DNA from: Vampirovibrionales bacterium
GTDB taxonomy: Bacteria; Cyanobacteriota; Vampirovibrionia; Vampirovibrionales; JAJTHC01
Direction: 5' to 3'
Assembly (NCBI GenBank): GCA_035285025.1
Contig: JAYKHY010000011.1
Location: 5,412 to 69,411, forward strand
Length of the DNA stretch: 64,000 nt
Under the pieces are notes generated by a model that was given only the letters and a program-made list of their open reading frames with translations, had not been told where the DNA came from and did not search any database. Each line of letters begins with the position of its first letter. Positions within the stretch are counted from its first letter, which is position 1. The position numbers and the translations under genes were made by a program. Positions 443 to 37,567 of the stretch are shown piece by piece.

Positions 443-2305
443 TCAGGCTGTAAGCAGGGCTTGTACAAGCCCTTGCGCAAAGGTTTCCGCAAATGCCGGG
501 TCAAGCAGCTGCGCAGCCTCTGCGGGGTGCGTTAAAAAGCCGGCTTCAATTAAAATCGCAACGTTACGGTCAATGCGCGTCATTGCAAGCGAATCAAACA
601 AAACGCCATACGCGGGTAAATCGCACGCTTGCGGCAGGGTTTGTAGCAACTTGCGGGCCAGCGGCTGCGCCCAAGGGTGGTAATAGTACGTACTCAGGCC
701 GCGCTCCAATGCCGGGTCTCGGCCATCGGGCAGCGCGTTGTGGTGCAGGCTAAAAATCACATCGCAGTGGGCCAGGCGCTCGGCGCGCTCCGCGAGCGAC
801 ACAAACTCATCTGAATCACGGCTCATGCACGTCTTAAACCCCGCGGCCTGCAAGGCGGTTTGGCATGCCCGCGCCAGCACAAGATTCAGCGTTTTTTCGG
901 GCGTGCCGTCTGGCGCAAGCGCGCCGGTTTCCTCGCCACCGTGGCCTGCATCTAACCCGATGAGCCAGTCTGTCGGCTTTGCGGGCAGTCGCAGTAACGC
1001 GATCGTGGTGCGCTCGCCCTGTTGTTGCATGGCAATGCCTTTGAGCGCGCCATAAACCGGCACCGTAATCTTAACGTTTTCGGGCGTCAGTTGTTGGCAG
1101 GTTATAGGGCCAATTGTATCGGGCAGGTCGGGCGCGTAACGGATAAAATCGCAGTGATGCGCCGTGTTGCAGGCCGTCAGCTCGAGCGTGTAGGCTTCAG
1201 CAAAATTACACGGTTGCGCGATAAGGTGCCAAATCACGGGCGCGCCGAACGCGTCAAACGTAAGCGTAATGCGGTTCGGTTCGTGCGTTACGTTAATCAC
1301 GCGCAAGGGCTTGAGGCCATTGGCGGGGATAAATTCGGGCGACGCATTCAGGCTCTGCTTCAGGCTTTTCTCTGGTGTGCATTCAGCTTGCGCGACCCAC
1401 ACAGGCGGCGTAGCCGAAACCTGATAATACCCGTTGCACAAGGCGCGCGCGTGTAAAATAGCGCCTGCGGGTTGCGCGGTTTGTCTGGCGGCAGCCGGGC
1501 TTGGGGCCACGCGGCAAGTGGCTGCCGGAGCCTTTACGATGAGTGTTCTGGGCGCGCGCCATAAGGTAAGCTCTCGCGTGAGCGGCGGTAAGCTTAACGC
1601 CTGTGTTTCTGGGCCAATGCTCAGGGTTAGGTCAATAGTTTGCTCTGGAGTCGTATTAAATTCAGGTAAATGCGCCATTGCTGGCAGTTTTATCGAGGCG
1701 TGATATACGCACGCCGCGTGAATCAGCGGCTGTGCGTGATGCAGGTGGGCAAAAATACCGCTGCGGTTATCCCAAAAAGATTCCTGCGCGTTTGCTAATG
1801 CATTTTGCGAGCTGGCCAGCGCATTCAGTCTGATTTTGTGATCGAGTTGCGGGCCGTTTAAAGTCGCCACAAGCGCTTGGTGTGCAGGGCCTAGCACCAA
1901 TATATCCAGTGTTTCGCCCGCACAGGCGGCAAGGCCAGAGGTATCTGGCGTTGGCCATAACCAGCTTAAGGTTGCTGGCTCGGGCGTCACCGGGCTTCGG
2001 TAAATCGCAATCTGCGTGCTAGCCAGGGCCGTTTCATCGGCAGCTGCAAGTGTGAGTTCAACCCGGTTTAGGCCCGGCTTAAGCACGACCTTATGGCAAA
2101 AAAAGCCGCTTGCAGCATCCAAAAGATCTACACGGCAAGCTTGTGTTGCACCGGTATGCCTATCATCATTGTGGTTCAACACGTTTAAGGTGGCACCGTT
2201 GGGCCGTGCGCCCTGGCAATGTCCCATCACAAAGGTGCTGGCCTCGGCCGTTTGATGACCGTGAGCAGGGTAGGTGCATAAAATGTGGGCGGGCGCGTCA
2301 GGCAT
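443..2305 (-). CDS. N-acetylmuramoyl-L-alanine amidase (Amidase_3 catalytic domain at the C-terminus; ~400-aa N-terminal region of unknown fold)
   Basis: C-terminal region reads IGLDAGHGGEETGA...VIFSLHHNA...GLSTYYY, matching the Amidase_3/AmiC-type motif pattern. 620-aa ORF. No obvious N-terminal signal in the called start. Confidence 0.7.
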   Translation of the reverse strand: MPDAPAHILCTYPAHGHQTAEASTFVMGHCQGARPNGATLNVLNHNDDRHTGATQACRVDLLDAASGFFCHKVVLKPGLNRVELTLAAADETALASTQIAIYRSPVTPEPATLSWLWPTPDTSGLAACAGETLDILVLGPAHQALVATLNGPQLDHKIRLNALASSQNALANAQESFWDNRSGIFAHLHHAQPLIHAACVYHASIKLPAMAHLPEFNTTPEQTIDLTLSIGPETQALSLPPLTRELTLWRAPRTLIVKAPAATCRVAPSPAAARQTAQPAGAILHARALCNGYYQVSATPPVWVAQAECTPEKSLKQSLNASPEFIPANGLKPLRVINVTHEPNRITLTFDAFGAPVIWHLIAQPCNFAEAYTLELTACNTAHHCDFIRYAPDLPDTIGPITCQQLTPENVKITVPVYGALKGIAMQQQGERTTIALLRLPAKPTDWLIGLDAGHGGEETGALAPDGTPEKTLNLVLARACQTALQAAGFKTCMSRDSDEFVSLAERAERLAHCDVIFSLHHNALPDGRDPALERGLSTYYYHPWAQPLARKLLQTLPQACDLPAYGVLFDSLAMTRIDRNVAILIEAGFLTHPAEAAQLLDPAFAETFAQGLVQALLTA

Positions 2306-2588
2306 ATTTGCTTTATACTGACCTAACTGGGTTTAAACGATATTTTTTAAATGCAGTTTTTTTTAAATACAGTTTTAATTTGGCGACTCTGCATTAATTT
2401 AACACCCTGAATGTTATACGCAAGTCAACTTTTAGGCTGCAATGCAATGGCCTCCAAAATCCCCTCTCGGCAATTGTTCGCTAACCCAAATGTCTGATTT
2501 GCCTCTTTAAACTGTACTTTTTTAATCGCATCGTGCGCACCGATGCACCACGCATGCACCACGTAATTTTTAACCCTTTGGCCTTACC

Positions 2589-4574
2589 TTGAACATGGGG
2601 ATTCCTGCTTTTATGAACCGGCGATTACCTACAGCAAGCGTTTTAGCGGCGTTAACCCTGCTGATGACGGTGGCGACAATGCCTGCGGCCTGGGCGGCAC
2701 GGCTAACCAACGCGCAGTTTAATCCGACGGCGCAAACCCTAACGTTTAACATGGCCGAAGGCACCTTTGACCCTGCCTTTAGCGTCGAGGCGCTGGCGAC
2801 GCAAATCAAGATTGGTAAAAACCTGAGCGGCGAAGGGGCCAACAGCGGCCGAACGGTCAGCCCGGGGTATCGCACCACGATTCTGGGCGAAAAAGTCAAA
2901 GTCGATGACGCGCTGTGGTCTCGTCTGGCAACCTTGCTGTACACGCTTAAGCAGCAGCCGGGCGTCGATGATGCCACGCTCGATAATCTGGACGGCCAGC
3001 TGGTGCTGCGCATCGAAAGTCGCCAGCCCATTCGGCCAATTGTACTGCAGCATAAAGGTTCGCAAATCGTGATTGCGCTGCGCAATATTCCGACTAAGGC
3101 CCCAAAAGCCGATCAAAGCGAGACCCAGGCCAACGCCAAGGCCTCTGATAAGGCTAATAAGGACGAGGCGCGCGTTGCGCAAAAAACGCCCGCTAAAGCT
3201 AACGCAAAAGCACCGGCCTCCAAATTGGCCGCTAAAGCGCCCGAGCCGATTGCGGCAGGTCAAATTCAACCCGAGGGCGTAACGTTGTCCCAAGTGCCTG
3301 CGCAGGTGCCAGCGCCAGCTACAACAGTTTCCTCTGTTGCAACGGGCGCTAGCGGGCCAACCCCGACGCCCGAAAAAAGCCCCGCGCAGCAGGTTGCACA
3401 AGCCGCAACGCAGGCGGCGAGTGCTGTAACGCAGCAGGTAGCTGTGCCGATTAGCTCGTTGTTTGATCGTTTGCGCACGGGTGCCACGCCTTCAGATGCC
3501 AAATCAGCTTCGTCAGATACAGCTAGCCAGAGCGATAGCGCTGCCCAGGCTGCGCAAATGGCGATGACCAGCCCAATATTATCAATTCCGCAATTGTCCA
3601 GCCCGGTATTAAGCAGCGGCGCAAGTAGCCTGTTGCAGTATTCGCCTACCCCGTTGTATGCCCAAGAGCTTGAGCCCGAGGCCATGGCGGGTGTAATGGT
3701 GCCGCATTTGGCCGATGCCTGGCAGCAGTACCGTAACGGTAACGCCCAGCAGGCGCGCCAGCAACTTGATGATTACCGGGCCGCGCACCCGGAAGATGGC
3801 GCAGGGCACACGCTAGCGCTGATGATGGCTAACGCTGACGATAACCCCTTGCAGGGGGCGCTTGCCAGCCAGCAGCTTTACGAGCACCAGTTGCAGGCGA
3901 TGACTGACAACAGTCCATCGGCCAGTACCGAGGCCGCCATGATGCTGGTGCGGACCTTTGTGGCCAGCGGCAAGCTGGATGCCGCCAGTCAGGTGTTGTC
4001 TGGCTTGAATCAAAAATTGCCGCGCTCGGCAGAGGTGAATTATCTGCAGGGCATGCTGTCCGAATCCAGCGGGAATCTGGCGTCGGCGCGCAAGCAGTAT
4101 TTGCAGGCGTTGAGTAACAATAGCGAGCATTTTTTAGCGCATTATCGTATGGCCATGGTGGCGCTCAAGCAAAACCGACTCGATGAAGCGCTCTGGGAGC
4201 TGGGCGAGGTGCTGCAGCGTCGTCCGGATGACGCCGAAGCGCTCAAGGCTATGGGGATTATCGCCCAACGCCAGGGCCGCCTGGATAAGGCCGCCGGGTA
4301 TTACAAGCGCGCGCTTAAGCCGGATTTATTGGCCAATTACGCGTTGGTGCTTCGGCAGCAGGGCCAAAAAGAGCAAGCCTTGGCCGTGGCCAATGCCGCG
4401 CGGGTGATTGCGCCGGATAATCTGGATGTGCAATACACGGTGGGCATGTTACTCAGCGAACTGGGCGATACGCGCAGTGGTAAACAGTTGCTGAGCGCGT
4501 TTTTGGCTCGCGAAGCCTCGGGCGAGCGTGCGGCGCAGGCCCGCGCCAAGCTGGGTAAGCTGGGGGCCAAATAA
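2589..4574 (+). CDS. Secreted AMIN-like domain plus low-complexity linker plus TPR-repeat protein
   Basis: Signal peptide (LTLLMTVATMPAAWAA). A ~110-aa beta-rich N-terminal domain resembles AMIN domains. A long A/P/K/Q/S-rich linker follows. The C-terminal ~280 aa has TPR-like repeats (LQGMLSESSGNLASARKQYLQAL...). Transcribed divergently from the amidase gene. Confidence 0.6.
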   Translation: MNMGIPAFMNRRLPTASVLAALTLLMTVATMPAAWAARLTNAQFNPTAQTLTFNMAEGTFDPAFSVEALATQIKIGKNLSGEGANSGRTVSPGYRTTILGEKVKVDDALWSRLATLLYTLKQQPGVDDATLDNLDGQLVLRIESRQPIRPIVLQHKGSQIVIALRNIPTKAPKADQSETQANAKASDKANKDEARVAQKTPAKANAKAPASKLAAKAPEPIAAGQIQPEGVTLSQVPAQVPAPATTVSSVATGASGPTPTPEKSPAQQVAQAATQAASAVTQQVAVPISSLFDRLRTGATPSDAKSASSDTASQSDSAAQAAQMAMTSPILSIPQLSSPVLSSGASSLLQYSPTPLYAQELEPEAMAGVMVPHLADAWQQYRNGNAQQARQQLDDYRAAHPEDGAGHTLALMMANADDNPLQGALASQQLYEHQLQAMTDNSPSASTEAAMMLVRTFVASGKLDAASQVLSGLNQKLPRSAEVNYLQGMLSESSGNLASARKQYLQALSNNSEHFLAHYRMAMVALKQNRLDEALWELGEVLQRRPDDAEALKAMGIIAQRQGRLDKAAGYYKRALKPDLLANYALVLRQQGQKEQALAVANAARVIAPDNLDVQYTVGMLLSELGDTRSGKQLLSAFLAREASGERAAQARAKLGKLGAK

Positions 4575-29191: not shown

Positions 29192-30085
29192 ATGCTTCGT
29201 CTGGGCGAAATTGAATACTTGAATACGCTGCCCTTTAGCGCAGTGTTTTTGGACTTAGAATTAAAAGAAGACGCTCATTCCATAAGCGGCACGCGTTGTG
29301 GCATGAGCGTTATAAAAGATACCCCGGCGGGCCTGAACGCGAAATTACTGGCTGGCGAGCTGGACGCCTCGGGCGTGTCGGCGGCGTGTTTACTGCAAAA
29401 CCCACAGGCGCTGATTCAGCTGCCGGGTTTGGGCATTAGCAGCCCCGGCCCGGTGATGAGCGTAACTGTGCTGAGCCCCGTGCCTTGGGCGGCACTCGCG
29501 GAGCAACCTGCGATTCAGGTCACGCCCGCCTCGGCCAGCGCGCGCGCGATGCTAAAGGGACTTCTGTTAGAGCAATTCGGTCAATATCCTGTGTTTGAGG
29601 AACTTAGAGATGCCCACAGGGAGGGAGCGCGAGGGAGGGAACGGCCCTCGAAAAAAAGCCATGTTCGCTTGGAAACAATCCCTCCACTCCAACCAAAGCT
29701 CATTATTGGCGATGCCGCGCTGGCCGAGCTGGATAACCCGAACTGGCCTTATAAACTGGATTTGGCGAGCCAATGGCACGCGCACACCGGCTTGCCCGCT
29801 GTGTTTGGCGTGTGGGCTGCGCGTCGCGCGTGGGCTGAGCAACACCCCGAGGCGTTTATTGCGCTTTCGGAGGCATTGCAAGCCGCAGCAAATTGCTATA
29901 AAACAGAGGCACATCGACAGGCGCAGGTGCTAGAGCTGGCTTACAATCGCTCGGATTTGCCCAGAGCGCGCCTTGAAACGTACCTGACATGCGCTATAGA
30001 CTATGCGTGGCAAGATGCGCACGCGCAAGCCTTGGCTCGGTTGGGCGAAATGCTCAAGCTTGAACGGACAACGTTACCCGCATGA
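29192..30085 (+). CDS. Menaquinone biosynthesis protein MqnA/MqnD family (futalosine pathway; chorismate dehydratase-like)
   Basis: N-terminal LRLGEIEYLNTLPF matches the MqnA (G.I.YLN..P) signature with a periplasmic-binding-protein-like fold. A charged low-complexity insert (DAHREGARGRERPSKKSH) is present. The stop overlaps the tsaD start. Confidence 0.65.
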   Translation: MLRLGEIEYLNTLPFSAVFLDLELKEDAHSISGTRCGMSVIKDTPAGLNAKLLAGELDASGVSAACLLQNPQALIQLPGLGISSPGPVMSVTVLSPVPWAALAEQPAIQVTPASASARAMLKGLLLEQFGQYPVFEELRDAHREGARGRERPSKKSHVRLETIPPLQPKLIIGDAALAELDNPNWPYKLDLASQWHAHTGLPAVFGVWAARRAWAEQHPEAFIALSEALQAAANCYKTEAHRQAQVLELAYNRSDLPRARLETYLTCAIDYAWQDAHAQALARLGEMLKLERTTLPA

Positions 30086-31110
30086 AAATCTTAGCCCTTG
30101 AATCCAGTTGTGACGATACCGGTGCCGCCATTATTGAGGATGGTCGGCGCGTGCTGGCCAACAAAGTAGCGTCTCAGGTGCAAATCCATACCCCGTTTGG
30201 TGGCGTACTGCCCGAAGCGGCTGCGCGCGAGCATTTGCTGGCCGTTAACGCGGTGGTGCAGGCAGCACTCGATGAAGCTGGCCTGAGTTTGGCAGACATG
30301 GATGCGTTTGCGGCGACCATAGGGCCGGGGCTGATTGGCTCGTTACTGATTGCATCGAGTACGGCGAAAGCCTTGAGTTTACTGACCGCAAAGCCTTTTT
30401 TAGGGATTAATCATTTATATGGCCACGTCGCCAGCGCGTATCTGGAAAGTGATTTAGAACCGCCGTTTTTATGTTTACTCGTCAGTGGCGGGCATACGCA
30501 GCTGATTCATGTCAAATCATTTTCGGACATGCAGATTTTGGGCGAAACGCTGGATGACGCTGTAGGCGAGGCGTATGACAAAACCGCGCGCTTGCTGGGG
30601 TTGCCCTTCCCCGGGGGGCCGGTGCTGGATAAACTGGCGGCGCAAGGCGACGCAACGCGATTTGAATTGCCGATTGCCAAAACGCAGTCGCCTTGGGATT
30701 TTAGCTTTAGCGGACTCAAAACGGCGGTGAATCGTCAGTGGTCAGGCTTGCTTCAGGCGCACCCGGATTGGAATCCTGCGCTGGATACAGACAATAACGA
30801 CAGCCCGTTTGCGCAAGCACGTGCCGACATGGCGGCGAGCTTCCAGCGCGTGGCGGTTAAAACCTTGCTGGATAAAACGCTTGCTTGCGCCAAGGCGCAC
30901 GGATTACAGCAGGTTTCGATTTGCGGCGGCGTGGCGGCCAATAGCGCACTGCGGCAGGCGTTTTGGGGGTGCGAGGCCGTGTCTGCCACGATTCCGGCGT
31001 TTAGATTTTGTACCGATAACGCCGCCATGATTGGCGCGAGCGCCTTTTTTAACCCAATCACGCAGGATTTGGGGCAGGATGTGTTTTCTCGGGTGTTGGT
31101 TCGGGCTTAG
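30082..31110 (+). CDS. tsaD: tRNA N6-adenosine threonylcarbamoyltransferase TsaD (Kae1/YgjD)
   Basis: MKILALESSCDDTGAAI N-terminus and full-length TsaD similarity with its metal-binding His pair. Confidence 0.9.
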   Translation: MKILALESSCDDTGAAIIEDGRRVLANKVASQVQIHTPFGGVLPEAAAREHLLAVNAVVQAALDEAGLSLADMDAFAATIGPGLIGSLLIASSTAKALSLLTAKPFLGINHLYGHVASAYLESDLEPPFLCLLVSGGHTQLIHVKSFSDMQILGETLDDAVGEAYDKTARLLGLPFPGGPVLDKLAAQGDATRFELPIAKTQSPWDFSFSGLKTAVNRQWSGLLQAHPDWNPALDTDNNDSPFAQARADMAASFQRVAVKTLLDKTLACAKAHGLQQVSICGGVAANSALRQAFWGCEAVSATIPAFRFCTDNAAMIGASAFFNPITQDLGQDVFSRVLVRA

Positions 31111-31417
31111 CGCTTACCTCAGGAAATCATAAATTTGCTTCGCTATGCAAAACGCGCGCGCAGGGTTAGGCTATAACACATCAGCGCTTTTAACAGAATA
31201 TTTCGCTCGAATGGCGAGTTAGCTTGCCTGTGCGGGCTGGGCGTTATAAAAACGCTTTTTTACATAAAAGCGTCGCCTCTCCCGCGCCCCTTGAACGTTT
31301 TTCTGGGGAAACTCGCTCAACCCGTTTGTAAAAATGATTCTTGATTATTGGTTTTCAACTAACTGACAATTCACGTTATTTAAACCACTTTTTAAAAAGA
31401 GGAGCATACGCACGCCT

Positions 31418-31846
31418 ATGGCGCGTTTTATTGTGCTGGCCAGCGGAGCCACTGCTGCTAGTCGACCAGATCCGAATTTGCTTGCGACCACAAATCCAGA
31501 GTGGTCTGGGCCGTTGGATCCGCCCGGTGCGGCGTGGCAAAGTCAGGGGAGTAAGGCGTTATTCCCGTTGGAGCCATTAACCGGCGGCGGCGACACGCCC
31601 ATGATTGTGGCGTTGATGCCTGGGGCCGGGGTGACCAGTGTGGATATCAGCGCGTGGTTTTACGTGGATGGCGTTGCGCAGTGGCTCCAGTTTAATAAGA
31701 ACACGCCAACGCTAACGTTGACGCAAAAATCTCTGGTGTTTATCGAGAATCCTTCTGGGCTGCCTTGCTATATTCAGCTGAGCAATTTTGTGGGCGGCAC
31801 GACGGCTAGTTTGTACGCCGATGCGCAGACGGCACAGATTGCTTGA
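31418..31846 (+). CDS. Hypothetical protein (142 aa), first gene of the phage-like cluster
   Basis: Strong SD AAGAGGAG 8 nt before the ATG. No signal peptide beyond a weakly hydrophobic N-terminus. Confidence 0.55.
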   Translation: MARFIVLASGATAASRPDPNLLATTNPEWSGPLDPPGAAWQSQGSKALFPLEPLTGGGDTPMIVALMPGAGVTSVDISAWFYVDGVAQWLQFNKNTPTLTLTQKSLVFIENPSGLPCYIQLSNFVGGTTASLYADAQTAQIA

Positions 31847-31873: not shown

Positions 31874-32848
31874 ATGTATACCCGTTTTGGCATGAATACT
31901 TTTGGCGCGGGGCTAATGCGCCGCTCGGTAACCACGGGCTTGAACCGGCGAGGTAAGCAATTGGGCAAAACTGTTCAGTACGACCAACCCACACACGAGT
32001 GGTTGTTTAACGCGGCGGACGGCGTCGTGATTCGAGATCAGGCAGGGGCGACGGATTTGCAGTTAAACACGGTCGGCACCCCGTCCATGCAATGGGTGGG
32101 TAGCGCGGCCACACGAGGCCTGGATATGAACACGCCGCCGACCAGCTATAACCCCGATAATTATTGGCGCGCTGTTAATAGCCTTGGCTACAATCATACG
32201 GCGTTTACGGTGTACGCCTGGATTACCATGAACACCGCCGATGATATTTTTGATTTTATGGCGTTTAGCAAGCTCAGTGGTAGTGTTAATCCTTACCGCT
32301 GGAAGCTGGGCGTGGGCCACAGCAAGCATTTTGAGCCACGTACCGTGTTTGCCTCGGGGCAGGGTGATTATTGGCTCCGCAGCGCAATGGCGGGTTTGCC
32401 AAATCATCCGTCTGGGCCGAATCAGGGCACGGAATATCAATCCAAAATGCCAATCGTGTATCGGTTGGGCGGCACCAAAAAATACGTCAGTTTTGTCGAT
32501 GGGCAAACGTATCTGGTTAAGTTTGGCTGGCAAACAATCGGCCCCAATAACGCCTATACCGAGGTGGGCATTGCAAAAAACGGTGATGCTTTTGGGTTTG
32601 ATCCGGAAGGCACAGGGCCGGATGCCGCGTTTAAAACCCAATGGCGACGCGAGTTTAGCGGCCGAACAATGGTATTGCCTACCGCTGGCGAAGCGTCGCT
32701 GTACCGGCTGACCAGCAATTCGGCACCCGTAAGCGAGCAAAGCGATGTGACGTATCACAAGATTTTGTATTACGACACGCTCAAGGGGTTTGAGCATGAC
32801 CAGCGCGTGTTTGCCGATGGACTGAATAAAAACAGCTGGTTTAGTTGA
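31874..32848 (+). CDS. Hypothetical beta-rich protein, possibly ConA/LamG-like (324 aa)
   Basis: ATG at 31874 with a GGAG SD (the 6-frame ORF begins at 31865). TAFTVYAWITMNTADDIF resembles the core strand of LamG-like lectin folds. No signal peptide. Confidence 0.55.
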   Translation: MYTRFGMNTFGAGLMRRSVTTGLNRRGKQLGKTVQYDQPTHEWLFNAADGVVIRDQAGATDLQLNTVGTPSMQWVGSAATRGLDMNTPPTSYNPDNYWRAVNSLGYNHTAFTVYAWITMNTADDIFDFMAFSKLSGSVNPYRWKLGVGHSKHFEPRTVFASGQGDYWLRSAMAGLPNHPSGPNQGTEYQSKMPIVYRLGGTKKYVSFVDGQTYLVKFGWQTIGPNNAYTEVGIAKNGDAFGFDPEGTGPDAAFKTQWRREFSGRTMVLPTAGEASLYRLTSNSAPVSEQSDVTYHKILYYDTLKGFEHDQRVFADGLNKNSWFS

Positions 32849-32901: not shown

Positions 32902-33390
32902 ATGGCGATTTTTGCAGACGGCACGATTATTACCACCGAAGGTAACGGGGCGTATCTTGATACGCTAATCCAGACCGGTAAAACCCTGACCAATAACGCG
33001 GGCGGCAGCATTGCAGGCGCCACGCTGCATACCCCCAGGCACCTGGCGGCTTACGAACACAGCGACGGCACCACGGGTGCGGTAGGCGTTAAAAGCACGC
33101 GCGGCTTGCCGGTGGTGTACCAAAGCGCAACCGAGACACTGGCGCAAGAAACCGTGGGTACAACCAGCGCTGCGTTTGCGGCCATTGCTAGCCTGACGGA
33201 AGGCGTGCACGTAAAAGCGCTGGCGAGTAACACCGGCCAGGTTTACCTTAAAAAAGGCGCGACGGCGACCACCGGTAACGGCTGGGAGCTTTCCGCAAAA
33301 GACGAGGTGTTTATACGGTGCGGCAACGCCAACGAGATTAACGCCATTGCCAGTGCCGCCGGGCAGAAAGTGTGCGTGAAAGCATGGTAG
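32902..33390 (+). CDS. Hypothetical small beta-rich protein (163 aa), phage structural-like
   Basis: GAGGAG SD 9 nt before the ATG at 32902 (the 6-frame ORF begins at 32845). Gly/Thr/Ala-rich. Overlaps the next gene by 7 nt. Confidence 0.5.
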   Translation: MAIFADGTIITTEGNGAYLDTLIQTGKTLTNNAGGSIAGATLHTPRHLAAYEHSDGTTGAVGVKSTRGLPVVYQSATETLAQETVGTTSAAFAAIASLTEGVHVKALASNTGQVYLKKGATATTGNGWELSAKDEVFIRCGNANEINAIASAAGQKVCVKAW

Positions 33391-34373
33391 TGCGTTTGAA
33401 GCCGGGTGCCGGTAACCCATCGTTACTAAAACTTGCTAACTACCGTGGCTTTAATGCTAACCCGGTGGTGATTCCGGTTTATGTACCACCCGCGCCGCCC
33501 GCGCCGACCGGCGATTTGCTGGATGACTTGGCCGCGCTTGGCGTAACGCCTGCCTATGCGTGGTCGATTACCAAAATAAAAAGCACGTATAACGGGCCAG
33601 CGGTTAAAATACGGCGTGCCAGCGACAACGCCGAGCAGGATATTAACTTTTTAAGCAACCGGACGCTGGATGCGTCGACACTGGCCAGTTTTTGCGGATC
33701 GTCCATTGGCTACGTGACCACCTGGTACGACCAAAGCGGTAACGCGCGCCACGCCACGCAAACCTCGCAGGCGCAACAGCCCATACTCTGGAGCGGCACG
33801 GCCATTAACACGATTAACGGCGCGCCGGGCCTGTTGTTTGATGGCAGCGATGACGGCCTGACGTTTCCGAATACCGGGGCGGTGACGGGTAACAACGCCT
33901 TAACGCTTGCGGTATGGGCGGGCGGCAATAACACCGCCAATACGGCGGGCTCGATTTTAAACCAAAGTTCGGTAGCAACCCGCAGCAGCGCCTACATTTG
34001 GGTCAGTCAGTCAGCAGCGACCGTGGAGCTGCGAACCTTTGGCGATAATCTGAGCCTGGGTGGCGGCTCGTTTGTGGTGGGCGACCGAAACGCGTTTATC
34101 TGGCGTTACGACCCGACGCCAAACCCGACCTACGGCACGCTGAGCGGCCATGTGCTTTACCGACAGGGCCAGAACGATACGCTAAACGGCGAAATTTTTG
34201 ATACACACGCTCTGGGCGGGGCCATGGTACTTTCGGCCTCGGTGCTGGCGATTGGGCGGCGCAGCACAACCAGTGACCGGTTTAACGGCACGGTGATGGC
34301 GGCGTTGTATATTCCGGCCGCGCTGGCCAGTTGGCCTAGTGTCAAGACCGTGCTTCAGCAGTACTGGACGTAA
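33384..34373 (+). CDS. LamG (concanavalin A-like lectin/glucanase) domain protein, phage tail-fibre/receptor-binding-like
   Basis: WYDQSGNARHAT...PGLLFDGSDDGLTFPN...ALTLAVWAG...FNGTVMAALYIPAAL matches the LamG_3 pattern (D.SGNGNH..., FDG.DD, WV, F.G.IDEV.IY..ALS). Start ATG overlaps the upstream stop (ATGGTAG). No signal peptide. Confidence 0.6.
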   Translation: MVVRLKPGAGNPSLLKLANYRGFNANPVVIPVYVPPAPPAPTGDLLDDLAALGVTPAYAWSITKIKSTYNGPAVKIRRASDNAEQDINFLSNRTLDASTLASFCGSSIGYVTTWYDQSGNARHATQTSQAQQPILWSGTAINTINGAPGLLFDGSDDGLTFPNTGAVTGNNALTLAVWAGGNNTANTAGSILNQSSVATRSSAYIWVSQSAATVELRTFGDNLSLGGGSFVVGDRNAFIWRYDPTPNPTYGTLSGHVLYRQGQNDTLNGEIFDTHALGGAMVLSASVLAIGRRSTTSDRFNGTVMAALYIPAALASWPSVKTVLQQYWT

Positions 34374-34580
34374 GTTCGAGGCTTCTCTGGGGCGCATAAG
34401 CTGTGTTGTTCGTCGCTCAAAATCCTCACGTAGTTTTTTAAACGCTGCGGTTTTTGCTCCTCACGCCTTGCTTCTGCATCCCCATAAAATCCTCTTTTTA
34501 AAAAATCATAAAAAAGCTCGTCATTTAGACGAAAGCCGTCATAAGGATTTTGAATCAAAAAGTAATCAGAGAGAGTCAAG

Positions 34581-34937
34581 ATGGACGTGATTAACACCCT
34601 CGAAAATAGTATTCAGGCCGGCATGCAAGTCGGGATTCCGGCGATGGCGGGCAGCGTGCTGGTGTTTTTAATCAACATTGGCCTGTTTGCCACCAAGGCC
34701 GAGCTGCAAGCGTTGCGCGCAGACCTGATTCAGCAAAGCATCAGCCGAGACGAAGTCGAGCGCGCGCTGGCCAAAATCGAGCGCACGATTCAGGACGCGC
34801 TGGCCATGCTTCGGCAGGACGTGCGCGATGATTTTCAGGAGCTTAAAAGCGATGTTCAAGCGCTGCGCGGCGCGCTGACCGGTATTACGCCGCTTAAAAA
34901 AAGAAACTCTGGCAGCGGAGGGCGCGCGGATGGCTGA
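34581..34937 (+). CDS. Single-TM plus coiled-coil membrane protein (holin-like or i-spanin-like)
   Basis: N-terminal TM helix VGIPAMAGSVLVFLINIGLF followed by a ~70-aa heptad-rich coiled coil. It has its own AT-rich promoter gap upstream. The stop overlaps the peptidase start (ATGGCTGA). Confidence 0.6.
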   Translation: MDVINTLENSIQAGMQVGIPAMAGSVLVFLINIGLFATKAELQALRADLIQQSISRDEVERALAKIERTIQDALAMLRQDVRDDFQELKSDVQALRGALTGITPLKKRNSGSGGRADG

Positions 34938-35355
34938 ATCTTCGTCTAAAAAAAAGCTCGATCCTGATTTGCAGTTAGCGCCAAACTTTTACCTGCGAGA
35001 ATTTTTACCCGATGGCGTGCTGCCTGAAGCCTTGCCAAAACCGGTACTAGAGAATTTACGGCGATTGGCCACGCAGTTGCAGGCCCTGCGCAATGGCGTG
35101 TTTAACGGCCGGGCGATTCGCATTAGCCCCAACGGCGGCGGCTACCGCACGCGTTTGCTGAACCAGCAATTGGGCGGCGCGCCACACAGTTTCCATTTAC
35201 AGGGCATGGCCGCCGATATTAACGTGGCCGGTTTGAGTCCCAGGCAGGTGCAAAGCTTGTTAAAAGCCTGGCCCGGCGGGCTGGGGGCGTACCCTGGGCA
35301 TACGCACGTGGATTTTGGCCCGCACCGCCGTTGGGCGGGGGTGTATAACAAGTAG
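34930..35355 (+). CDS. Peptidase M15 (Peptidase_M15_3/YcbK-like) zinc peptidoglycan endopeptidase, endolysin-like; no signal peptide
   Basis: Motifs YLREF..., SFHLQGMAADI (H-x6-D zinc ligands) and HTHVDF are typical of M15 L,D/D,D-peptidases of phage endolysin type. GGAGGG SD. Translationally coupled to the upstream TM gene. Confidence 0.7.
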   Translation: MAESSSKKKLDPDLQLAPNFYLREFLPDGVLPEALPKPVLENLRRLATQLQALRNGVFNGRAIRISPNGGGYRTRLLNQQLGGAPHSFHLQGMAADINVAGLSPRQVQSLLKAWPGGLGAYPGHTHVDFGPHRRWAGVYNK

Positions 35356-35410
35356 CGCGTTATTCTGGCTTTTACCAGAATGACAAACGTTGCATGATGG
35401 AGAGATACTA

Positions 35411-36091
35411 ATGCAAACGATTTTGATTCATGGCATTGGTGATAACCAGGCAAATTTTGCCGAGCGCTGGCAGACTGCAGCGCTGCTAAACTTGCCCGAG
35501 CGCAGCGTCGTGTCGTTTTATTACGAGGATTTGATGGATGAGACCTCGGCTAACGTGCTAATGCAATTGCTGGTTAAGGCGGCCGAGGTGTTTTTCCGGG
35601 TGCCGTTGCAAACCGCGGGGATTTTGATTCCAGAGTATGTGGGCGATGTTGTGGCGTTTTTGTTTGATGCCCGGTTGCGAGAGGCTATTGCGACGCGATT
35701 AAGGATTCAACTTGAGCCGCTTGCCAAGGACGATCAATTGCTCGTGATTGGGCACTCTCAGGGGGCGTTGGTGGCGGTTTGGTTGTTGCTGACCCAGCCG
35801 TGGCTATTGCAAGGCCGAACCATTACGCTGGCCACGCTTGGGTGCCCACTGGGCAGCCCGGTGCAGGGCATGGCAACGCTGCTTAAAAAGCTGTTCCCGG
35901 TTAAAAAGCCGCTGGGCCGCCCGAATATTGCCCGCTGGATTAACGTGCACTCCAAGCTGGATCCGCTCAGTGGTGAGATTCGGGGCCTGGGCTGCGACAC
36001 GCAGGTGCAGGCGATGATGCACCAGGGTGTGTTTCACCGGAGTATTCAGGGGTATCTTAAGTTGCTGGCGGGGGCGCTTCAGGCAGAGTAA
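35411..36091 (+). CDS. Alpha/beta-hydrolase fold serine esterase/lipase-like protein (GHSQG nucleophile elbow); no signal peptide
   Basis: ILIHGIGD (oxyanion region), LVIGHSQGALV (GxSxG), and downstream Asp/His candidates (KLDPLSG, MHQGVFH). The ATG at 35411 has a GGAGAG SD (the 6-frame ORF begins at 35390). Confidence 0.55.
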   Translation: MQTILIHGIGDNQANFAERWQTAALLNLPERSVVSFYYEDLMDETSANVLMQLLVKAAEVFFRVPLQTAGILIPEYVGDVVAFLFDARLREAIATRLRIQLEPLAKDDQLLVIGHSQGALVAVWLLLTQPWLLQGRTITLATLGCPLGSPVQGMATLLKKLFPVKKPLGRPNIARWINVHSKLDPLSGEIRGLGCDTQVQAMMHQGVFHRSIQGYLKLLAGALQAE

Positions 36092-36157
36092 ACTGGAGTA
36101 CGCTTGCCTGTTGCTATGCAAGTGCTCGTGGTGTTGTTTTAGGCGGCAGAGACCAAC

Positions 36158-37567
36158 ATGCTTTTATTGAAGCGCATTTTAAAATCATTATTTGCAGGCT
36201 TTTGGCTGACGACCCTGATTGCATTGGGCGCCATGCACTTAGGCGGTTGCCAGTCCGCGAACCATGAGCGCGAGCAGGCGACGCCTGTGACGCTGACGCT
36301 TTGGACGCTGCAAATGCAGCCGTTTGAAACCTTGGTACGCAAGGCCATTACGGATTTTGAGCACCAGCACCCCGGCGTGCGCGTGCAGTGGGAAGATCTG
36401 CCTTTTGCAGAAGGCAAAAAACGCGCGTTGGCCGCGGTGCTGAGCCCGCGGGTGCCGGACGTGATTAACCTGAACCCCGGTTTTGCCGCGCTGCTGGCCC
36501 AGCGCGGCGCGCTGCTAGATATGAACACCGAATTATCCGCCGAGCAGCAAGCGGATTACGTGCCCGTAGTGTGGGAAGCCGTTCAGCTACAAAGACGCCT
36601 CACAGCTGGGCGGCCTGTCGGCGTTGGCGTGAGGCATGCAAATATTGCAGTAGGCTTGCCTTGGTACGTAACGACGACGGTGACGATGAGTAACGCCGCG
36701 CTGCTAAAACAGGCGGGTTGGCAGCACCCGCCCGAGACACTGGCCGAGCTGGAGCAATTGGGCCACGCCCTAAAACCACTGGGGTACAAGGCCCTAATGC
36801 CCGCGATTGCCGAGAACGGCGCGTTTTTAAAGCTGCTGCGCCGCGCAGGGCTGGAGCCGGTGCAAAACGGGTGTCTGGTTTGGGCGGGGCTGCCCGAAGT
36901 CCGGCGCCAGTTGGCGTTTTATAAACGCCTTTACGATGCGCGACTAATCCCGGCGGAATCCTTGACGGCGGGGCACCGGGCGGCTGTAGAGCAATATTTA
37001 AGCGGGCGACTGGCGCTGCTAAGCAGCGGCCCGAATTTTTTGGGCATGGTTAAAGACAACGCACCCGAGGTTTACGCGCAAACGCAGGTTTCGCCTGCAA
37101 TCCCGATGGCGGGCTATAATCAGCACGCGTATCTGGATGTTTCTGCCATGGTGCTAAGCGTACCCAGTAAAAGTGCGCATCCCAAGCTGGCCATTGCGTT
37201 GGCGCGCACGTTGGCGGGGCCTGAGTTTCAGTTGGCGCTGGCTAAAACCGTGCCGGTGTTGCCTTCGGTTAAGGCGGCATACGCGCAAGCGCCCGCGTTT
37301 TTTGGCTTAACGCCCTCGGCCACCCCTCGCGTGCATACTGTAGATTCTGCCATGACGGCTGGGCGTTGGCTGACCGCGCAACAATTATTGGGCGCTAAAG
37401 CAACGAATCCGGTGTTACCCAACGAGGCGCAACTGAATACGGCAGTTGATTACGCCATTCAGAGTGTGTTGCTTGATCGTAGCGATATTCCTGAAGCGCT
37501 GAGTCATGCCGAACAGCGGGTTAACGCGGGCACGTGCGTAACCACCGCCGAAAGCTTGGCGCAATAA
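36158..37567 (+). CDS. Extracellular solute-binding lipoprotein (ABC SBP family 1, sugar-type)
   Basis: Lipoprotein signal with LGGC lipobox and an SBP_bac_1-like fold. No adjacent permease or ATPase genes. Confidence 0.65.
   Translation: MLLLKRILKSLFAGFWLTTLIALGAMHLGGCQSANHEREQATPVTLTLWTLQMQPFETLVRKAITDFEHQHPGVRVQWEDLPFAEGKKRALAAVLSPRVPDVINLNPGFAALLAQRGALLDMNTELSAEQQADYVPVVWEAVQLQRRLTAGRPVGVGVRHANIAVGLPWYVTTTVTMSNAALLKQAGWQHPPETLAELEQLGHALKPLGYKALMPAIAENGAFLKLLRRAGLEPVQNGCLVWAGLPEVRRQLAFYKRLYDARLIPAESLTAGHRAAVEQYLSGRLALLSSGPNFLGMVKDNAPEVYAQTQVSPAIPMAGYNQHAYLDVSAMVLSVPSKSAHPKLAIALARTLAGPEFQLALAKTVPVLPSVKAAYAQAPAFFGLTPSATPRVHTVDSAMTAGRWLTAQQLLGAKATNPVLPNEAQLNTAVDYAIQSVLLDRSDIPEALSHAEQRVNAGTCVTTAESLAQ

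Follow-up and report, generated by a model that had tools for sequence, protein, structure and literature searches.

The question raised by three consecutive genes of a Vampirovibrionales bacterium from the Cyanobacteriota (assembly GCA_035285025.1, contig JAYKHY010000011.1, positions 5,412 to 69,411; this stretch of 64,000 nt is referred to below as the window) is whether they form a protein-release device run by the bacterium or a part of what a phage has left behind. The genes are located at positions 34581-36091 of the window as three intact open reading frames (ORFs) of the plus strand, and encode, in this order, a small protein with one transmembrane domain (TMD) and a coiled coil (TM-CC), a peptidase of family M15, and an esterase with the nucleophile motif GHSQG. 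A preliminary description of this DNA took them for a holin/endopeptidase cassette of the type 10 secretion system (T10SS) kind, serving adjacent lectin-like proteins. The interpretation preferred here, to which we give a probability of roughly 0.68, is that a prophage remnant ends here, on its 3' side, with a lysis module, three lysis genes following upon tail-fibre-type genes; the earlier interpretation is partly supported by this outcome. A module of this kind is in itself ordinary. Less ordinary are a not previously described esterase family that tracks endolysins across unrelated phages, and a candidate holin composed of a single TMD and a coiled coil.

The cassette itself is real. An identical 12-kb contig (L001, 0 mismatches) is present in a second assembly, and two public gene calls agree on all three genes. 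The genes of TM-CC and of the M15 peptidase overlap by 8 nt, ATGGCTGA, at 34930-37, as had been described. The mechanical ORF of the esterase begins at TTG 35390, while both public gene calls prefer ATG 35411, which lies behind GGAGAG.

The best defined of the three products is the M15 peptidase, which matches PF08291 (Peptidase_M15_3; E 2.9e-11, 43.9 bits vs. a gathering cut-off of 23.2) and PHROG 894, annotated as 'endolysin' (6.7e-19). Its 141 aa make up one catalytic domain, a cell-wall-binding domain being absent, and its zinc site, H89-x6-D96 and H124-x-H126, is intact, with H89, D96 and H126 conserved in relatives. The N-terminus is hydrophilic (maximal 19-residue Kyte-Doolittle mean 0.50) and devoid of a twin-arginine motif, in agreement with the earlier statement that the enzyme has no signal peptide; a cryptic export signal was considered and rejected on hydropathy. 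The protein is therefore best classified, on the basis of its sequence, as a probable signal-less zinc peptidoglycan peptidase of the M15A/PF08291 type, and the proposed logic of a lysis cassette, in which a membrane protein is coupled to a signal-less peptidoglycan peptidase, holds. The proposed kinship with L-Ala-D-Glu endopeptidases of the ChiX type is not supported. ChiX has a deposited structure, and in a phmmer and 12-sequence profile comparison with all PDB chains the only match at E<=1 was 1LBU, the zinc DD-carboxypeptidase of Streptomyces albus (profile E 1e-13), so that relatedness to ChiX, Ply500 or the T5-type L-alanoyl-D-glutamate peptidases was not retrievable at the level of sequence and profile at which the comparison was made (a single-sequence AlphaFold2 model reached a predicted local distance difference test score, pLDDT, of 42).

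The closest M15 relatives are found in phages. A word-indexed search at a tight threshold returned the window protein only, and a genome scan with exact M15 peptides returned nothing, but a genome scan with the M15 alignment recovered a third Vampirovibrionales metagenome-assembled genome (MAG; L008). The nearest copy, 62-63% identical, is encoded by the temperate siphovirus contig IMGVR_UViG_3300032308_002752 (L202/L114), which carries genes for a tape measure, a distal tail protein, a J-like central fibre, an integrase and large fibre proteins; its M15 gene lies at the end of the tail operon, and the first 14 nt of this gene are shared with the preceding ORF, whose 133-aa product has a hydrophobic N-terminus and a coiled coil. 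The M15 proteins of the window, of this phage (L114) and of the second Vampirovibrionales genome discussed below (L006) form a clade marked by a 3-residue insertion, SPNGGGYR vs. T/N-SGYR. In the sequence record MW495066.1 portal, major head, tail and fibre genes are followed by a gene for an 83-aa protein that has a TMD and a coiled coil and is significantly similar to TM-CC (pairwise E 7e-7), and then by an M15 gene whose product is 44-45% identical to that of the window. L008 contains a similar island ending in M15. The pair of TM-CC and M15 thus recurs in phages as a module directly behind the last tail-fibre genes, the classical site of holin and endolysin genes. It is worth mentioning that the tyrosine integrase gene of the temperate contig (L202:3291-4385; PHROG 1, 5e-68) occupies an unusual position inside the tail module, between the tail proteins and the J-like fibre.

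The esterase carries an IHGIG oxyanion motif, the GHS116QG nucleophile motif, D184, and a His about 5 residues before the invariant Y215; in the alignments S116 and D184 are invariant and the His keeps this position in all members. Its structural model is an alpha/beta hydrolase (pLDDT 77; predicted template modelling score, pTM, 0.81), for which the best Foldseek matches in the PDB are lipases and esterases (probability 1.0, TM-score about 0.5). Fold and HMM matches comprise the A. fulgidus, Streptomyces and Bacillus LipA lipases, esterases of the hormone-sensitive-lipase type, an acyl-protein thioesterase, and PGAP1; one homologue of the esterase reaches the Pfam DDHD (phospholipase A1) domain, and a homologue used as a query retrieved only a distant PGAP1-like protein. 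The best viral structure match is an alpha/beta hydrolase of an uncultured member of Caudovirales, while LysB models in BFVD match only at E ~0.02, at ranks 34-38, and no cutinase or LysB match was obtained in Pfam or PHROGs. The esterase belongs to no PHROG, NCBIfam or PADLOC family and has no relative in 50,697 GenBank phage genomes. Its family has thus not been described previously and has no characterised member; the enzyme may act in the manner of LysB without belonging to the LysB family.

The homologues found are all encoded by phage contigs or by the locus of the second Vampirovibrionales genome. In L002 the order of genes is a LamG+GDSL fibre protein, a 63-aa TM-CC protein, a 166-aa protein, a GH108 lysozyme, a 51-aa ORF, and the esterase. 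L032 and L003 share fibres, a 128-aa TM-CC analogue, a protein of 191/193 aa, the esterase and a terminase, with a two-gene insertion in L003. In L004 and L005 a weakly matching Tlde1-like protein, a 53-aa ORF and the esterase follow one another. The T7-like contigs L031 and L033, which resemble phages of diderm hosts, encode an RNA polymerase, a single-strand-binding protein, an endonuclease (L033), an Amidase_2+PG_binding_1 protein, the esterase, and a primase (L033). In four of the five lineages the esterase gene is thus separated by at most one small ORF from an upstream gene for an identifiable or candidate cell-wall hydrolase, and the three hydrolase families that are firmly assigned, M15 (window, L006), GH108 (L002) and Amidase_2+PG_binding_1 (L031, L033), are unrelated to each other; the Tlde1-like match (L005) is weak. 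Since chance adjacency would be expected at a rate of about a few percent per genome by a rough estimate, the association of the esterase with endolysins is unlikely to be accidental, and the earlier suggestion of a LysB-like lysis accessory gains support from the adjacency to endolysins of three unrelated families on phage contigs. Two observations concern individual esterase-carrying phages. The 499-aa protein of L002 (4796-6295), encoded directly 5' of the small TM-CC gene, has an N-terminus that looks LamG-like by eye and a C-terminal GDSL lipase domain (Pfam), and is a second, virion-type lipase of this phage. Two reverse-strand genes (340 and 264 aa) are inserted in L003 (8158-9907) relative to L032, and a 53-aa strongly hydrophobic ORF follows the esterase there.

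The rival that survives best concerns this gene: the esterase could be an accessory phage gene (a moron) engaged, for example, in the deacylation of a surface polymer or receptor, in host lipid metabolism, or in superinfection exclusion. Phage lipases with roles directed at extracellular polymers are known (PMC12173070), and an enzyme family lacking both a characterised member and any trace in PHROGs, NCBIfam and the 50,697 GenBank phage genomes would suit such a gene. In MW495066.1, L114 and L008 the M15 gene is followed by other genes, namely small ORFs of 84-88 aa or a C92 amidase; in L008 (10379-10897) this Peptidase_C92 protein, a YaeF/YiiX permuted papain-like amidase, takes the slot of the esterase directly after M15. 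The assignment to lysis is also weakened by the small size of the set (about nine loci in five lineages, a metagenome scan with the esterase alignment having added one further locus only), by the 191/193-aa protein of L032 and L003, which matches only SLT_2 at E 0.067 and was not counted as an endolysin, by the separation of the L003 esterase from its lysin candidate by the two inserted genes, and by the nature of the argument, which is one of guilt by association. Nevertheless, a moron would not be expected beside hydrolases of three unrelated families and one weakly matching protein in four of five lineages, including a T7-type amidase-esterase locus that lies in the middle region of the genome and not at an operon end; the esterase bears neither a signal peptide nor a virion-association domain, and it is conserved together with TM-CC and M15 in two Vampirovibrionales genomes. 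We regard the accessory role as the less probable assignment, at about one chance in four, and a role in lysis as the preferred one.

TM-CC, of 118 aa, has a short acidic N-terminus, one TMD at about residues 17-37 (19-residue Kyte-Doolittle mean 2.08), and beyond it a charged, helical part with a coiled coil of ~60 aa and a basic tail (KKR..R). Hydropathy and charge analysis gave a charge of -2 for the N-terminal flank, basic residues after the TMD, and +3 for the tail. It is the only protein of the cassette with a TMD, both enzymes being without export signals, and on this ground it is the candidate for the holin. It shows the generic layout of holins, being small, with at least one TMD and a charged C-terminus, and encoded next to an endolysin gene; it likewise shows the layout of the LysF1b-like class with a single TMD (an N-terminal TMD, a charged C-terminal part, 92-150 aa, location in a lysis cassette), which is a class of architecture and not a homology family. 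Members of this class, single-TMD holin-like proteins of N-out/C-in topology with charged tails, have been shown genetically to drive mycobacteriophage lysis (PMC13056207), and TM-CC would fit the architecture of the class without homology to it. From the acidic or neutral N-terminal flank and the basic residues right after the TMD an N-out/C-in topology is predicted, opposite to the N-in/C-out topology of i-spanins. The counterparts of 63, 68, 83, 128 and 133 aa display the same pattern in their sequences, with an acidic or neutral N-terminal flank and basic residues close behind the hydrophobic segment.

Relatives of TM-CC are few. A word-indexed protein search returned the query only, and a scan of IMG/VR with the TM-CC alignment returned nothing; a full HMMER search over 1.8 billion representatives found two, P0007 in L006 (E 3e-20, 58% identical) and P0008, a protein of 68 aa (E 4e-4) encoded among tail-fibre genes. 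All family matches of TM-CC are weak and of the coiled-coil type. Four points count against its identification as a holin: it has no match at E<=0.1 among the holin families of Pfam, PHROGs and NCBIfam; its sub-threshold matches are to Rz-like i-spanins (PHROG 7686, 6e-4; TIGR03495, 0.007, with a cut-off of 92.75 bits); the predicted topology relies on the positive-inside rule, a weak predictor; and the corresponding proteins of L032, L003 and L002 show no homology to the window family (hhalign probability 0.1), for which reason they are treated here as analogues. Of the profile searches proposed for these genes, that for M15_3 was thus positive above threshold, while no holin family was matched and the spanin matches were sub-threshold.

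The second rival follows from these matches: TM-CC would be an i-spanin-like or other periplasmic coiled-coil protein, the holin would have been lost or lie elsewhere, and the remnant would not be competent for lysis. An N-terminal TMD with a coiled coil in a protein of 118 aa corresponds to the architecture of an i-spanin, that of T4, PseT.3, being of 117 aa (PMC6139136); the only family hints are three Rz-like PHROGs among the sub-threshold matches and TIGR03495, an Rz-like LysB family, and the hydrophobic 53-aa ORF behind the esterase of L003 could be a holin. The hints are, however, far below threshold, and we read them as a resemblance between coiled coils, because no o-spanin ORF accompanies the gene, the charge pattern is the reverse of that of an i-spanin, the homologues are short, and TM-CC is the only membrane protein beside signal-less enzymes. 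A lipobox scan of all plus-strand frames of the window (34400-36150), L006 and L032 revealed no credible or conserved o-spanin ORF, whether embedded, overlapping or adjacent, which agrees with the earlier failure to find an Rz1-like lipoprotein ORF. With 68 and 83 aa, respectively, two homologues could not reach across the periplasm, which argues against an i-spanin, and a gene immediately 5' of that of a signal-less endolysin, in some cases translationally coupled to it, stands in the usual place of a holin gene. On balance, TM-CC is slightly favoured as a holin, with odds a little better than even, whereas an i-spanin-like protein, and with it a remnant unable to lyse its host, seems unlikely. 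That TM-CC is a fragment of a tape measure or scaffold protein, named earlier as grounds for abandoning the holin, was rejected, the TMP_3 match (E 0.048, 13.8 bits vs. a cut-off of 41) being far below the Pfam threshold.

If the three products act in lysis, the mechanistic steps that we infer beyond the family assignments would be the following. Inserted into the inner membrane, TM-CC would expose its short acidic N-terminus on the outer side and keep the coiled coil and the basic tail in the cytoplasm, an orientation suggested by its charges, and would permeabilise the membrane as a holin. The M15 enzyme, whose family and metal site are established, would then reach the murein and cut peptide stems or cross-links. 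The esterase would leave through the same lesion and hydrolyse an acyl or lipid ester in the outer envelope, in an outer-membrane lipid, a lipoprotein or a tether; judging from its fold and its placement after unrelated endolysins, it could do the job performed by spanins in proteobacterial phages or by LysB in mycobacteriophages.

The cassette is the last part of a 4.9-kb island (31.2-36.1 kb) composed of seven tightly packed plus-strand ORFs, all intact, between tsaD and a gene for a solute-binding lipoprotein (SBP) of an ABC transporter (Table 1). The island carries no integrase, head, replication or packaging genes, and its flanks comprise tsaD/mqnA-like and ABC transporter genes; since it comprises only seven ORFs in 4.9 kb and lacks integrase, head and packaging genes, it is not a complete prophage. 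Its GC content and that at third codon positions (GC3) are indistinguishable from those of host genes. The lectin-like ('LamG') protein taken earlier for secreted cargo is the 329-aa product encoded upstream of TM-CC, which matches PF09206 in its N-terminal region (9.4e-11) and PHROG 10356, a virion structural protein (3.6e-16); tblastn relates it to minor tail and virion proteins of Gordonia, Arthrobacter, Synechococcus and Aphanizomenon phages, and 107 loci were confirmed for it in IMG/VR. Of the remaining products, that of 324 aa gave a marginal local match with a 959-aa fibre protein of the phage contig L114 (pairwise E 0.008) and no relatives in the IMG/VR scan (327 aa as scanned); in pairwise comparisons with the L114 fibre proteins the 324/327-aa and 162/181-aa proteins gave marginal results or none. 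PADLOC yielded no defence-system match for any island protein.

Table 1. Features of the island and of its flanks, in window coordinates.
Feature	Coordinates	Strand	Remarks
tsaD	30082-31110		left flank of the island
16-nt imperfect direct repeat, left copy	31216..31231		GAGTTAGCTTGCCTGT; ~105 nt past the tsaD stop
142-aa ORF, first island gene	31418..31846	+	no Pfam, PHROG, NCBIfam or PADLOC match; GC3 host-like
324-aa ORF	31874..32848	+	possibly a tail-fibre-like beta-sandwich; L001 gene call; no family match
162-aa ORF	32902..33390	+	L001 gene call; weak match to PHROG 11169 (0.013)
329-aa beta-sandwich protein	33384..34373	+	phage tail-fibre/virion type; 'LamG-like' of the preliminary description
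Intergenic gap, 207 bp	34374..34580		5' of the lysis genes
TM-CC, 118 aa	34581..34937	+	candidate holin
M15 peptidase, 141 aa	34930..35355	+	candidate endolysin
Esterase, 226 aa	35411..36091	+	proposed third lysis factor
16-nt repeat, right copy	36096..36111		GAGTACGCTTGCCTGT; 5 nt past the esterase stop
SBP gene (ABC solute-binding lipoprotein)	36158-37567		right flank of the island

The borders of the island are marked by a 16-nt imperfect direct repeat (14/16 bases identical), just two copies of which occur in the 64-kb window, bracketing the island exactly. It may be the remnant of an att core (attL/attR), although this is suggestive only, as over 5.5 kb chance alone often produces repeats of such length; the repeat is absent from L006. 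The gap of 207 bp before TM-CC exists as described, but the promoter attributed to it does not emerge from a scan for the sigma-70 consensus, which detected none in either gap. The sequence TTTTTAAAAAGAGGA (31389-31403), 5' of the first island gene, is the exact reverse complement of TCCTCTTTTTAAAAA (34490-34504) in the 207-bp gap; the pair may be a shared regulatory site or a product of chance in AT-rich spacers. The same gap is spanned by an 80-aa GTG-initiated ORF of the minus strand (34355-34597), which has no family match and is present in neither public annotation.

The full triad is carried by two genomes only, the second being another, distant Vampirovibrionales MAG, GCA_035285385.1 (L006/L007), which is about 55% identical. 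Its contig starts inside the TM-CC gene and continues with M15, the esterase (nucleophile motif GYSLG), two small genes, and an orthologue of the SBP gene. The occurrence of the same three genes in the same order in a second genome argues that the arrangement is not due to chance. Amino acid identity between the window and L006 is 51-55% for TM-CC, 56-60% for M15, 46% for the esterase, and 54-56% for the host SBP. For the triad the proportion of nonsynonymous differences (pN) is 0.30-0.37 (0.31 for SBP) and that of synonymous differences (pS) 0.74-0.80, i.e., saturated; since all ORFs are intact and pN is host-like with a saturated pS, purifying selection has acted on the triad. The remaining L006 genes are without counterpart in the window, the neighbourhood being otherwise rearranged. 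The gene overlap is not conserved, as TM-CC and M15 are separated by 200 bp in L006 and by 70 bp in MW495066.1. Either the triad is a domesticated host module, or this site has received related temperate phages more than once, most of the prophage having since disappeared around the window copy. Repeated integration is favoured on three grounds: identity of the window M15 is higher with the temperate-phage copy (62%) than with its syntenic counterpart in the L006 chromosome (56%), the L006 contig breaks exactly at the cassette, and the overlap is not conserved.

Domestication is the basis of the remaining rival, a host-controlled T10SS-like or programmed-lysis module that would release the beta-sandwich proteins and/or the esterase. 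The seven intact ORFs in an island far too small for a phage, its host-like GC and GC3, and the retention of the triad with a host-like pN beside an orthologous SBP gene in an otherwise rearranged neighbourhood would be expected of it, and the definition of a T10SS, in which a phage-derived pair of holin and peptidoglycan hydrolase serves a linked cargo and spanins may be absent, leaves room for such a locus (PMC13284979). Of this pair the hydrolase is confirmed and an adjacent membrane partner is present, its identity as a holin being inferred. However, the supposed cargo is homologous to phage tail and virion proteins, neither a regulator nor a recognisable exoprotein or cargo-type gene is present in the island, and the island, instead of forming a dedicated cargo locus outside a phage morphogenesis operon, is built like the 3'-terminal part of phage late operons such as those of L202/L114, L002 and L032. 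Further points against a host-controlled module are the higher identity of the window M15 with the temperate-phage copy, the sequence type of M15, which is not that of ChiX, the break of the L006 contig inside the TM-CC gene, upstream of which a full prophage may lie, the restriction of the triad to two genomes, and the occurrence of esterase homologues in lytic-phage contexts (T7-like contigs), where cargo would make no sense. We consider this module improbable, and the end of a prophage remnant the better account of the locus.

Three side observations concern the elements that share the TM-CC/M15 pair or the M15 gene. The first is that L008 (1-10900) and L199 (7500-17400) share a compact head/tail/fibre/M15 island with proteins of 512/521 and 385/394 aa and M15 (52-53% identity), located in different chromosomal contexts and with no replication or packaging genes visible nearby. 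Portal and major head proteins were recognised by PHROG in MW495066.1 only, L008 having a capsid-like fragment, noticed by reading, at the edge of the locus. These islands could represent a family of defective prophages or an element resembling gene-transfer agents. The second is that within the L008 island (1341-3073) a 469-aa protein and an overlapping 108-aa acidic protein have, on inspection, the look of a toxin/immunity moron. The third concerns MW495066.1 itself ('Microcystis phage MaAM05', i.e., PhiMa05; L195-L200), a record of 273.9 kb with 54% GC that is labelled a jumbo cyanophage and annotated almost entirely with housekeeping genes: ispG/H, mqnC, trpS, rpsA, secE-nusG-rplK-rplA, rpoD, smc-scpAB, uvrA, topA, ftsH, sufBCDS, secDF, and genes of flagella and chemotaxis. 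Only one island of ~10 kb is phage-like (207.5-217.4 kb; portal, head, tail, fibre, TM-CC, M15), and the record looks like a fragment of a Vampirovibrionales-type chromosome; this is relevant to a published report that a phage encodes six ribosomal proteins (PMC13157829).

The significance of the locus lies mainly in the esterase. The locus bears on the question of how phages of many diderm bacteria pass the outer membrane without spanins. To our knowledge, only one non-spanin solution is available for such hosts, a cationic 'disruptin' peptide, and a part in lysis has been assigned to lipid esterases almost exclusively in phages whose hosts make mycolic acids. The esterase family, which spans T7-like, Mu-like and siphovirus-like contigs as well as Vampirovibrionales chromosomes, offers a concrete candidate that can be tested. 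A bolder proposal is that it represents a new class of phage lysis enzymes breaching the outer membrane or its tethers in spanin-less diderm hosts and, as a further step, that Vampirovibrionales retain the triad as a host-controlled module; we put this forward tentatively, as less likely than not. If true, it would extend three-step lysis by holin, endolysin and esterase beyond the mycolata, and would provide a candidate answer for some of the 'spanin-less' phages, of which one survey counted 91, with 20 on marine cyanobacteria (PMC6139136). The esterase could also become an outer-membrane-active partner for engineered lysins. A pattern of 'holin + M15 + cargo' read from sequence alone is, in this instance, better explained by the end of a prophage than by a T10SS.

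Comparison with known systems places the cassette among several of them. Like the T10SS, represented by Serratia ChiWXYZ, the Salmonella TtsA/chitinase systems, the Yersinia entomophaga cassette, and C. difficile TcdE/TcdL, it includes a chromosomal pair of phage origin, a membrane protein with a peptidoglycan hydrolase, that lies apart from any intact prophage; unlike them, it adjoins homologues of tail-fibre proteins and not toxins or chitinases, it has no dedicated regulator, its M15 is 1LBU-like and not retrievably ChiX-like, and the closest relatives of its genes are in phages. With the S/R/Rz/Rz1 cassette of lambda it shares the location at the prophage end, immediately behind the genes for tail fibres, a membrane-protein gene lying 5' of the endolysin gene and overlapping it, and an endolysin that would depend on a membrane lesion; it differs in that neither an o-spanin nor a u-spanin was found, the third gene encodes an esterase, and the membrane protein combines a single TMD with a long coiled coil. 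Its endolysin has the H-x6-D and H-x-H zinc site of the M15A enzymes (S. albus G 1LBU, PHROG 894 phage endolysins), but is a single domain without a cell-wall-binding domain and with the 3-residue clade insertion.

For the esterase, the idea of an action on the outer membrane has a precedent in another enzyme family, since a lipase is encoded in the lysis cassette of a siphovirus of Pseudomonas syringae pv. actinidiae (Psa) and has become part of the chimera ELP-E10 (PMC12173070). Here, too, a phage of a Gram-negative bacterium has a serine lipase/esterase among its lysis genes, and the enzyme is proposed to perturb the outer membrane or surface polymers (PMC12173070); it differs in that it is described as a homologue of a lipase from Aeromonas hydrophila and occurs together with a carbohydrate-binding domain, its role in lysis being a proposal, and, if it is among the GenBank phage records searched, it is not a detectable relative of the window esterase. 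A parallel in composition is offered by the LysA/LysB/holin (LysF1b/Gp5) cassettes of mycobacteriophages, LysB being a mycolylarabinogalactan esterase, in which a single-pass membrane protein with a charged cytoplasmic tail is combined with a signal-less peptidoglycan hydrolase and a signal-less GXSXG serine esterase directed at the outer lipid layer (PMC13056207, PMC5707550), the genes cluster at the end of the structural genes, and spanins are absent. No component is homologous in sequence, so that the parallel is one of function only: LysB is of the cutinase type and the window esterase a minimal alpha/beta hydrolase resembling lipases, PGAP1 and DDHD proteins, the endolysin is a single-domain M15A enzyme, and the host is a diderm without mycolic acids. 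Within these bounds, and by analogy, the cassette looks like a functional parallel of the mycobacteriophage LysA/LysB/holin system in a diderm of the Cyanobacteriota lineage.

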